Assembly (NCBI GenBank): GCA_951406725.2
Contig: OX597825.1
Coordinates: 24,924,001-24,988,000 of the forward strand
Direction: 5' to 3'
Length of the DNA: 64,000 nucleotides
Source of the DNA: Octopus vulgaris
Taxonomy: Eukaryota
Both the position numbers and the translations under genes were made by a program. Positions within the stretch are counted from its first letter, which is position 1, and each line of letters begins with the position of its first letter. This document shows, piece after piece, positions 6,791 through 50,424 of this stretch. The notes beneath the pieces were generated by a model, which saw only the letters and a program-made list of their open reading frames with translations, had not been told where the DNA came from and made no database searches.

Positions 6791-7839
6791 AATAATGACG
6801 AAATTGTTTTACTAAATGCTTCACTATTATTGAAATTAATTGAAATAAAAGTAGAGAGTGCTTTAACAGAAATATGGTGACGAAATGGTTAAGTGGACAT
6901 ATAATGAAATTTGAACCATCTTACTGTATTGCATGGCTACATTTCTCTAATTACCTCACCACAATGGTATTCCAACCACGACCATCCTATCTTTTTGTTT
7001 GTTTTTTAAGAAGAGTGTATCTAGGACTAATCTTTCAAGTGTGTCACATGGCCTTGTTCATTTTCAGGTGAATTTGGCAGCAACCCTTTGTAAAAGGGCC
7101 ACTAAAATAAGCAGAAGCTCTTCCATTAGGACACGTCTCGTTCATTAATACCGATTCTACAGAGTCTGGACAACTATAAAACTATTGACCTCTTCTTTAC
7201 ACTCTTAAATATTTTTTTAAATATTAATTTCAATAAAGTGAAAACCAAGTTCTCTTGTTTTGTTTATTGATCCTTTCCAGTCTTCTATGGAAAGCTTGTC
7301 TGACCATGCAGAAATATTACCTTGCTTGGAAACAGGTAAGGGTTGGCAACAGGGAAGGCTTCCAACTGTACAAAATCTGCCTTAATAAATTCCGTCAGAC
7401 CCATGAAACTTTAGGAATGTGGATGTTAAAACAAGGGGGAAGGAGGAGGCAGAGGAGGAACTTACTACTTTAAACTGCCCAGATGTAAGTGAATACTACA
7501 GATTACTAACAACTCATTCAGCTACCTACTTAGACCGGTACCTGTTTGTTGACCCTAAAAGGGTGAAAGGCAAAAGTTGACCCCAGCAGAATTTGAACTC
7601 AAAATATAGCACAGAGAGTTGGAACAAATACCACAAAGCATTTTGTCCAATGCTCTACCAACTCATACACAGATTTTATAAGCAACACAGAAACGAAATT
7701 AACCCTTTAGCATTCATATTGTTCTATCAAAGCAGAAATAATAAGTTCAAATTAATACAGCCCCGTTTTCAGCGTTATACAACAGAATAAAATCTACATT
7801 AATCCTTCAACATTCAGATTATTGAGTGTAATGTTTATT

Positions 7840-8222
7840 TACTCTTTTACTTGTTTCAGTCATCTGACTGCAGCCATGCTGGAGCACCACCTTTAGGCAA
7901 ACAAATCGACCCCAGGACTTATTCTATCAGCCTCTTTTGCCGAACAGCTAAGTTACAGGGACGTAAACACACCACCATCAGTTGTCAAGCGATGCTGTGG
8001 GGGACAAACACAGACACACAAACACATACATACATATATACATACATATATATATATACGACAGGCTTCTTTCAGTTTCCATCTACCAAATCCACTCACA
8101 AGGCTTTGGTGGCCCAAGGCTATAGTAAAAAGACACTTGCTCAAGGTGCCATGCAGTAGGACTGAACCTGGACCCATGTGGTTGGAAAGCAAGCTACTTA
8201 CCACACAGCCACTCCTGTGCCT
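7840..8222 (-). mobile_element. SINE family A
   Basis: Reverse complement of the family A consensus with (AGTAAAAG) tail. Confidence 0.85.
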
Positions 8223-8419
8223 ATATTGTTTTTAATTAATCATGTATTATCTTGCAGCTTTGAAATTTTTATGATACAATTGTATATTTTCAGAATGATA
8301 TTGAAGGGTAGGTGTGATAGGCTGATATGGCCATAAAACAGAATATTTTGCTCACATGTGACTGGTTTCAATGCTAAAAGGCTAAACTGTGTACACAAGA
8401 AATTACTACATACACAAAC

Positions 8420-8864
8420 CCATGCCGGTGGCATGTAGAAAGCACCCACTACACTCTCGGAGTGGTTGGCATTTGGAAGGGCATCCAGCTGTAGAAACCT
8501 TGCCAGATCAGATTGGAGCCTGGTACTGCCTCCTGGCTTGCCAGTCTCCAGTCAAACCGTCCAACCCATGCCAGCATGGAAAACGGACATTAAATGATGA
8601 TGATCATTATGATAATGACAAAATATTAATTACCAGAAATAATGAAGTAATTAACCAACATAGTTATTACTTTCAAATTTTGACACAAGGCCAGCAACTT
8701 CAGGTGAGGGTGAATCTATTACATCGACCCCGGAGCTCAGCAGTTGCTTATTTTCTCAACCTTGAAAGGATGTAAAGTAAATGTAGACCTCAGGACATAC
8801 AGACAGATGAAATGTAGCTAAGAATTTTGCCCAGTGGGCTAATGACTCTGACAGTTAGCTGCCT

Positions 8865-8901
<37 letters not shown>

Positions 8902-9315
8902 TACTTATACAATAAAAAAATTAAAAAAACCAAAATCAAATCAAATCTGATCAAAATGGAAATTGTAATTGTGGTCGATGCCAGTGCCGCCTAACTGGCA
9001 CCTGTGCAGGTGGCATGTAAAAAGCACCATTCACATGTGGGTTGATGCCAGTGCTGCCTGACTGGCTCCCAGTGTAGGTGACACGTAAAAAACACCATTC
9101 AGACGTGATCGATGCCAGTACCCCCACCGACTGGTTCCCATGGCGGTGGTACATAAAATGCACCCGCTACACTTTCGGAGTGGTTGCCATTAGGAAGGGC
9201 ATCCAGCTGTAGAAACCTTGCCAGATCAGATTGGAGCCTGATACAGCCTCCTGGCTTGCCAGTCCCCAAGACAAACTGTCCAACCCATGACAGCATGGAA
9301 AGCAGACACTGAACG

Positions 9316-9345
<30 letters not shown>
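8420..9345 (+). mobile_element. two RTE 3'-UTR fragments (8420-8605, ~8945-9345) separated by a SINE B relic
   Basis: GGAGTGGTTGGC..TAGGAAGGGCATCCAGCTGTAGAAAC core and (GAT)n tails; tandem subrepeats in the second copy. Confidence 0.75.
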
Positions 9346-9348
<3 letters not shown>

Positions 9349-10294
9349 GTGCGGTAGAAGTAATGTTCTTTTGTATTTGAGTTTTCTAGTTTCTAAGTGA
9401 GTTCCTTTTATTATTTCCTAAAACTTCTGTGATTATTTTTTTCATTAGTTTATTATTCGTTTAAGTAATGCAATAAATTTGTGTTCGATAAAAAAAATTA
9501 CTTAATAAACATTTATATACTATAAAAGATATTAAATGCAAAAAGGGTATTATTTCTACGATGCCCGGTATATTTAGAGCGTGCAGGTTTTTGTCACAGA
9601 AAAAAATAATTTGCTTCATACCATAAGATTTTTTTATACACAAAATTAGGAGTAATATTGTACATAAAACTTATTTATAACATAAATTTGCAAAATCCAG
9701 AAAAACCCATAAGGATTATAAGCCTGGCACCAGTATGACTGTAATGAAAGTAGAGATAAGTGCCCTGCTTAAGCACACTGTGACAGGATATCATGTTGTC
9801 ATGTGACCCATGTGACTGCTTTAAATCACTCACAGCAAGTATTGTTATTTTGGTATACATGTGTGCATGCATGTACAGACACATACACACACACATACAC
9901 ATGCACGCACGCACACAGATATGCACAAACACTGACACTCACACACATCTGGACACATACATGTACACACAAAGTATTGTTTATATATATATTTTCTTGT
10001 ACAAACACACACATCTATGCATACACACATACACAGATATATATATATATATATATATATATCTTTGCACACATACTCACACACACACACTAAGGAAAAT
10101 TTACAAATATATCCATATACATATTTCCATACACATCCATAAACACATACACACATGCATGGGCATATCTGTACACAAAGGTGGATACACTATGACCTAC
10201 AAATACACACACACACACACACATACAAACACAACATACACAGACATATTCATAATTACATATATACACTAAAAACACATCTGAAAGTACATTC

Positions 10295-28837: not shown

Positions 28838-28951
28838 TATGAACTTCATTTGCTTACAACTGTTTCTGCTATAAGATGCAGCGGACTCATAGTTGGATGC
28901 ATGAGTGTCACTTTATAACTTCATCAGAGCTTCAAGCTAGTGAAGTTCATA
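28838..28951 (-). ncRNA. type-I hammerhead ribozyme with extended stem I
   Basis: Minus strand: GCT-CTGATGA-a-GTTATAA..ACTCAT..ATGAGT..TTATAGC-a-GAAA-CAGTTG-TA-AGC, plus distal 11-bp helix TATGAACTTCA/TGAAGTTCATA. Confidence 0.75.
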
Positions 28952-34819: not shown

Positions 34820-35028
34820 TATTAATACAGCTGCAAAGCCATCACAAAAACTGTTGCTCAGAGTTTCATGTTCCTGTTCGTGAGGTTTGTCAAACAGTTT
34901 TGGTTGAGAATATATATATATATATATATATATAGTAACTCCAAACATGAATAAAGAGGACAGCAAGCATTAAGGCAAGGCAAACATCTCAAGCTGTATA
35001 CAATATTATTATTGGAAAGAATTTAAAA

Positions 35029-35082
35029 TCTTACAGCTATTTCTGGGATATCCCTGAGTATGGGATATTCCGTCATCAGAGA
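35029..35082 (-). ncRNA. type-I hammerhead ribozyme
   Basis: Minus strand: TCT-CTGATGA-cGGaATATCCC-atactca-GGGATATCCca-GAAA-TAGCTG-TA-AGA. Confidence 0.72.
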
Positions 35083-35612
35083 CAAATAGGGAAAAAATAG
35101 GGAAAATGAGAATGGTGTATATTAATGAAATGATGACATAGAGGAAGGGCGTAAAAGAATAAGGAGATGGAAAGAAAGGAGAAAAAGAAGCATAAAAGCT
35201 CATAGTTCAACTTTCCGAATTTGTAGAAATCAGACCCTACGCAGGATTGCACCTTAGGACTCATGCTCTGGTTTCTATAACTTCAGAAAGTTGAACTATG
35301 AAGAGGTGTGAGTCCAGTTACTCTGCTATTTCCCTTATCAAGTCCTTTGTAAAAAAATTCTCTTACATTTTAACATCTTCTCTTCTCTATTTAAAAAAAA
35401 ATTGTTCAATTTTTATGGGATTCCTTTCCATATATTCACAACACACCATATACAAGCATTATTTTTATATTCGCAAACTTACACCAGTAAGCTACCAGCA
35501 AAATATGAAGAATCTATATTAGAAATCTTTCTTAGAATCCTCCAAATTAAAGGACGAAATTCAATTCAACCTTTTTACATTGTTTAAACCTCGCCAAGAT
35601 AAATATTTAAAC

Positions 35613-35676
35613 CACCTGATGAATGACTGCGACTCAAAAATTTGAAGAAGTTAGCAGGCATGAAACGATCGTAGTA
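35613..35676 (+). ncRNA. type-I hammerhead ribozyme
   Basis: CAC-CTGATGA-ATG..CTGC..GCAG.CAT-GAAA-CGATCG-TA-GTA; palindromic stem III. Confidence 0.72.
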
Positions 35677-35911
35677 TGATATTACTTATATTTTTTTAAT
35701 AATTTTGTTATATATTTAAATAATATAAATTAAATAATCTTATGTATTGGCTTAAGTTTTTCATTGTTTGATTTGCCTAATAGTGGTTTTGTTTCTAATT
35801 TAATATAATATAATATTTTACTATAAAATTGGATTCAATCCTAAATCTGATTTTTCCCTGTAAGTTTGGATTTATTCCCTAATATTTATTATATATATAT
35901 ATATATATATA

Positions 35912-50094: not shown

Positions 50095-50424
50095 TTATAA
50101 TTCAAACATAATAGTAGTGTTGTTAGAGTAAGCAAGGAATTAAGAAATAATGCATGAAGGCTCTTACAGCTGTTTCTAGAATAGCTGTGTGTATGGTGCT
50201 CAGAGTAATTCTTCAACAATGCAACTGGTAACTACTATTATCTCTAACTAAAGATTATTCTTAAATTCTCTGAAGACAAAATAGTTGGCTTAGATGGAAA
50301 TTTTTTGTTCAATGACCTATCCACCATAAGCACACTATTCTAGAAACAGCTGTAGGAGCCTTTATTCATTATTTCTAAATTCCTTATTTACTCTAACAAC
50401 TCTGCAATTGTGTTTGAATTATAA
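50095..50424. repeat. inverted repeat (~104-bp arms) containing a hammerhead ribozyme (50266-50358, +)
   Basis: Arms 50095-50198 / 50322-50424; TTCT-CTGAAGA...GAAA-CAGCTG-TA-GGAG. Confidence 0.85.

Follow-up and report, generated by a model that had tools for sequence, protein, structure and literature searches.

Within the 64-kb stretch of Octopus vulgaris DNA analyzed here (the window), a short block bordered by AT-rich microsatellites carries two hammerhead ribozyme motifs on opposite strands and a long hairpin (Table 1). Local BLAST splits this block into three parts: A (34952-35302, minus strand), B (35319/35354-35579, plus strand), and C (35578-35893, plus strand), with no significant similarity among them (best E 0.088). 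They add new members to known Hydra-type families of Penelope-like elements (PLEs). As the earlier note on this DNA had it, there is no convincing open reading frame, the longest stop-free stretch in 34901-35900 being 91 codons.

Table 1. Features of the block and its flanks (window coordinates)
Feature	Position	Strand	Remarks
(AT)n microsatellite	34910-34934		Left flank; likely insertion target
Terminal stub of a fourth repeat (D), 26 nt	34933-34958		Shares 7 nt (TAAAGAG) with the end of A
Family A	34952-35236	minus	5′-truncated 3′ end (pLTR) of a Hydra-type PLE; identity to its best genome copies 87-91%
Type I hammerhead, family A	~35028-35083	minus	Predicted cut 35032/35031
Hairpin	35200-35302		A in direct orientation (to 35236), then its inverted second arm (35237-35302); 5′ inversion junction
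Filler, 16 nt	35303-35318		A/B junction
Family B	35319-35579	plus	3′ end of a second Hydra-type PLE
Family C	35578-35893	plus	Spliced solo pLTR plus tail of a young Hydra-clade PLE
Family C, exon 1	35578-35602	plus	Intron absent at 35602/35603
Family C, tail	to ~35893	plus	
Type I hammerhead, family C	35613-35676	plus	Predicted cut 35673/35674
(TA)n microsatellite	35890-35911		3′ end of C; likely insertion target

Genomic distribution of the parts

A search of the whole genome (2.8 Gb) with positions 34950-35900 gave 39 other places (best 40 of 3905 candidates scored), all matching the right part only, at query positions of at least 596. The left and middle parts each have a match set of their own with sharp boundaries (best 40 scored of 1995 and of 1448 candidates, respectively). 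Probes of 30 nt across the A/B and B/C junctions, allowing up to 2 mismatches, matched nothing in the 2.8-Gb genome except the window itself, and the stretch around the filler (35300-35322) had no match at up to 3 mismatches in the fetched loci. Sequence of these families was present at 192 of 231 other loci (not fully de-duplicated): one family in 187, B with C in 4, and A with C in 1; none of the 231 paired A with B or crossed either junction.

Two readings had been offered in the earlier note. The first, a single mobile unit bearing one ribozyme per polarity, does not survive these searches: the two halves were only ever found apart, and neither junction has a second occurrence in the genome. 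The second, two Penelope tails fused head-to-head, named the right kind of sequence (PLE ends) but missed the details: there are three unrelated ends plus a 26-nt stub rather than two, B lies between A and C, and the hairpin is wholly inside the left element. The stub, D, has 807 genome matches at up to 3 mismatches, against 1 for a control; in all five fetched copies it has TA-rich sequence before it and non-A sequence after it, and it is probably another retroelement end.

Hammerhead motifs and hairpin

Both of the hammerheads noticed earlier, an intact-core one on the minus strand at the left end and a different one on the plus strand, were found. The minus-strand motif has the order GTCT-CTGATGA-stem II-GAAA-TAGCTG-TA-AGAT and the plus-strand motif, about 540 nt away, CAC-CTGATGA-stem II-GAAA-CGATCG-TA-GTA. 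The CUGANGA, GAAA, and UH core and helices I-III are present in both, with a helix I of only 2 bp in the C copy. Each has lost one helix pair relative to its own family: stem III of the A motif includes TAGCTG, vs. CAGCTG in 26 of 34 core-intact A copies, and stem I of the C motif is CAC/GTA, vs. CCAC/GTGT in 45 of 60 core-intact C copies. Such a loss in both motifs fits neutral decay. Helix III has six bases in each, palindromic in C (CGATCG, also in 55 of the 60 C copies) and near-palindromic in A. Family B has a hammerhead of its own, with an intact core in 9 of 27 copies; the window copy lacks it because of an internal deletion of ~125-130 nt, across which 35319-35355 is joined to 35354-35579.

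A strict hammerhead descriptor gave two matches in the 64-kb window (35616, plus; 28927, minus), where 60 Markov-resampled windows averaged 0.07, and missed the motif at 35079; a second descriptor gave four, including both block motifs. Rfam returned no hammerhead match in the 64-kb window either at the gathering threshold or at E<=10, where there were only weak repeat-driven matches. Two more type I hammerhead-like motifs lie at 28927 on the minus strand and at 50270 on the plus strand; their stem III sequences, CAGTTG and CAGCTG, are near-palindromic or palindromic.

Folded as a monomer, neither block motif forms the three-way junction (z -1.6 to 0.0), which fits minimal hammerheads of the dimer type. 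Dimer-type hammerheads with a palindromic helix III have been described for metazoan PLEs, and so have pairs of minimal hammerheads that derive from truncated PLEs and lie on opposite strands at a distance of ~100-700 bp (Cervera and de la Pena, 2014; PMC4209133). The block resembles those pairs as described there in its type I motifs, short helix I, long helix II, palindromic helix III, opposite strands, and pLTRs. It differs in that its motifs come from two families with a third between them, while the accessible text of that paper does not state whether its pairs belong to a single family. Within one family, the hammerhead region is often present on both strands, at 7 of the 49 loci of A and 10 of the 57 of C. 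In the parent elements the motifs would be predicted to act as dimer-type ribozymes; in the block they are likely inert passengers.

The reported 35-bp-stem hairpin was likewise confirmed: positions 35200-35301 have 35-nt arms that are 89% complementary and fold with -45.4 kcal/mol (z -7.9), better than any of 200 shuffles. Positions 35237-35302 are inverted A sequence, with an 83-94% match to unfolded A copies, so that the hairpin is family A folded back on itself and not a fusion point between elements. Of 28 other A loci, 14 also have an inverted second arm, with varying breakpoints, and the same holds for 22 of 29 loci of C and 8 of 29 of B; the inverted partners of other C copies end at a position equal to 35816 in the window. 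Inverted 5′-truncated copies are reported as typical of PLE insertions (PMC8557442, PMC3846280), and the hairpin in A is one of these.

It might be asked whether the hairpin, a stable stem-loop of 102 nt with a weak Rfam match to mir-4081 (18.8 bits, cutoff 70), has been co-opted as a functional RNA, for example a microRNA-like or endo-siRNA precursor trimmed by the hammerheads. This is highly unlikely: its arms are two copies of repeat A whose fold-back points vary among copies, the four differences between the arms are all one-sided and none is compensatory, and the hammerheads, being on different strands, could not trim one RNA.

A viroid- or retroviroid-like unit of ~650 nt, with a ribozyme for each polarity, replicated as circular RNA and integrated here, would explain ribozyme motifs on both strands without an open reading frame, and the block does fold as a circle better than shuffled sequence (z -3.1 and -2.4; 25 shuffles). 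This advantage, however, is due to the hairpin alone: once it is removed, z is -0.5. In the block as a whole, just 60% of bases are paired. The compact rod-like or branched monomer fold of viroids and retroviroids, and ribozymes of both polarities in one replicating unit, were not found. Neither terminal repeats nor matching cut ends define a monomer, each part comes from an abundant family of its own, with a separate RT/endonuclease parent, and the uniqueness of both junctions refutes such a unit as a mobile family. We give this explanation practically no chance; the block is ordinary transposon debris rather than a viroid-like unit.

Parent elements and assembly of the block

For C, two pLTR-ORF-pLTR units (L166 and L167) of ~5 kb, measured pLTR to pLTR, were found. 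The broken ORF includes a KWK (as IKWKA, where an RWK motif is expected), a DKT (SDKTRNLY in both units), RT motifs (PMGAPDS, YRDD), a CxCx5C linker (CACRDKTKC), CxxC and CxH motifs, and a domain of the GIY-YIG type that lacks CCHH. No C copy with an intact ORF was found, and Pfam did not recognize the C ORF pieces. Between its RT and endonuclease there is an asparagine-rich stretch (L166 3894-4838, L167 3578-4699), resembling the N-rich inserts described in rotifer Penelope ORFs (PMC3846280).

For B there is one pLTR-ORF-pLTR copy (L124, ~8 kb pLTR to pLTR); segments between its pLTRs are 36-45% identical to the C protein and include RT and C-terminal GIY-YIG-type segments, with RWK present (MRWKA). 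A is tied to protein sequence by remnants only: those of the endonuclease precede it in 7 of 30 longer copies, and those of the linker include a CxCx5C linker, CNCISRTVC, in copy L202. No intact ORF was found for either family, the segments of A and B that were examined showed no DKT, and the RWK region was not recovered for A. Some GIY-YIG frames that might have been taken for A or C proteins (L050/L128 and L095/L121) belong to a different PLE family, adjoining A or C across microsatellites.

A, B, and C derive from RT/GIY-YIG PLEs whose proteins carry Hydra-clade motifs, the clade itself being assigned by motif. As that clade is described by Craig et al. (2021; PMC8557442), the C parent shares with it DKT, the CxCx5C linker, CxxC, CxH, the absence of CCHH, a C-terminal GIY-YIG-type domain, a canonical hammerhead, and a (TA)n target, and the B parent has RWK. 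Unlike the clade, C has KWK for RWK and the asparagine-rich stretch, and all the ORFs seen are broken; the units are also longer than the <3 kb given there as a tendency. Features of EN+ PLEs are found more generally: a pLTR-ORF-pLTR structure with RT and GIY-YIG in C and B, and 5′ truncation with an inverted 5′ copy. Their optional tails exceed 30-40 bp in C (~77 nt) and A (~130 nt).

Metazoan non-LTR retrozymes, as described in a preprint (bioRxiv 10.64898/2026.07.22.740005), are similarly non-coding and PLE-derived and have a type I hammerhead. Unlike them, the block locus shows no head-to-tail units that each include a hammerhead. A 632-nt tandem in L054/L132, considered as a retrozyme array, was rejected: it consists of two 99.8% identical A copies 100 N apart, and those in L132 (G000:C1:96149500-96159400) are likely an assembly duplication. 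Separately, L135 contains a PLE family that is very young: its 776-aa RT-GIY-YIG frames are intact, identical, and paired head to head (586-2913, minus; 7050-9377, plus), with a 487-codon open frame upstream, and it has many near-identical genome copies.

The block is thus best described as the 3′ ends of three unrelated PLE families with Hydra-clade motifs, which separate insertions into TA/CA microsatellites have very probably stacked. In most copies of B and of C a (CA)n/(TA)n stretch closes the element at the same base, so stacking of PLE ends is to be expected. Hydra elements are reported to target (TA)n, and a microsatellite bias and inverted 5′ copies are known for PLEs (PMC8557442); nicking of AT-rich DNA and internal initiation of reverse transcription at the tail have been shown in vitro for an anole PLE (PMC11167929). 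In such an insertion the GIY-YIG endonuclease would nick an AT-rich repeat, and the RT would copy element RNA from its 3′ tail and stop early; the 5′ join would often fold back, giving the hairpin in A.

In the simplest history the older A and B insertions came first, with the fold-back in A and the internal deletion in B, and C probably last, as cDNA of a spliced sense RNA entering the microsatellite that normally follows B. This order is suggested by divergence and nesting. Identity to the best copies is mostly 94-98% for C and 84-91% for A and B (best 40 scored per search), implying different ages of insertion. The window copy of B stops exactly at the normal B 3′ terminus, where a microsatellite usually follows, and C begins exactly where that microsatellite normally would. 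A and B may have met by insertion or by later deletion. Since each family has one hammerhead per terminal repeat, and A and C lie in opposite orientations, a divergent pair results. Roughly one divergent A/C pair within 700 nt would be expected by chance in the octopus genome, assuming uniform placement and taking candidate counts as copy numbers.

A compound insertion is another possibility, in which a single RT event switched among A, B, and C templates at one nick. It would account for the (TA)n on both outer sides and for the short microhomologies at the joins (7 nt at D/A, 2 nt at B/C), and PLE RTs are reported to make complex joins (PMC3846280). The different ages of the parts argue against it, as does a B that ends at its usual microsatellite position, and we regard it as very unlikely.

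Spliced copies of family C

The window copy of C lacks its intron precisely. Of 30 loci fetched with an intron query, 21 have a GT donor after exon 1 and a TTTTAG acceptor beyond it; the two are separated by 694-716 nt in 19 of these loci and by 826-831 nt in the other two. Exact-probe counts gave 324 spliced C junctions and 96 unspliced acceptors, with none for controls; this ratio is approximate, as the spliced probe had two degenerate positions and the unspliced probe none. Three exon-1 variants are present in both spliced and unspliced forms, which favors repeated copying of spliced RNA over a single intron loss. In a query-biased sample, 24 of 26 spliced, exon-1-bearing copies have their start no more than 13 nt before a single exon-1 motif, at or downstream of TTAGTT, which we take to be initiator-like.

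The Drosophila virilis Penelope, as described by Schostak et al. (2008; PMC2377424), similarly has a short first exon and a spliceosomal intron, and its hammerhead lies just downstream of the acceptor, as in C (PMC2377424, PMC4209133). Its intron is 75 nt, whereas that of C is ~700 nt. A 700-nt GT..AG joint in a presumed-RNA run was discarded as evidence of expression: a joint of equal length is present in a likely-DNA run.

PLEs have been described as retaining introns, with an antisense template proposed as the explanation (PMC3846280); selection against intronless copies has also been proposed (PMC2377424). In contrast to that description, most of the counted C junctions are intronless. For a spliced genomic copy, sense RNA is the only possible source, and spliced sense RNA is likely a main template for family C copies. 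It seems reasonably probable, further, that the main template of new C insertions is spliced sense RNA begun at the pLTR promoter, and that full-length copies keep the 700-nt intron. We found no published report of mostly spliced genomic PLE copies in a search that covered literature listings and passages of open papers, and a prior description may exist.

As a cassette the block has no significance, and it suggests caution: in genomes rich in PLEs, a search for ribozymes of both polarities will pick up stacked Penelope ends. Family C is of use beyond this, as its copies with and without the intron have a bearing on the RNA strand that PLEs copy. If the proposal above is true, a spliced template would yield promoter-less solo pLTRs of ~330 nt; it would argue against an antisense template as the general reason for intron retention in PLEs, and would offer a countable genomic test of why they keep their introns.
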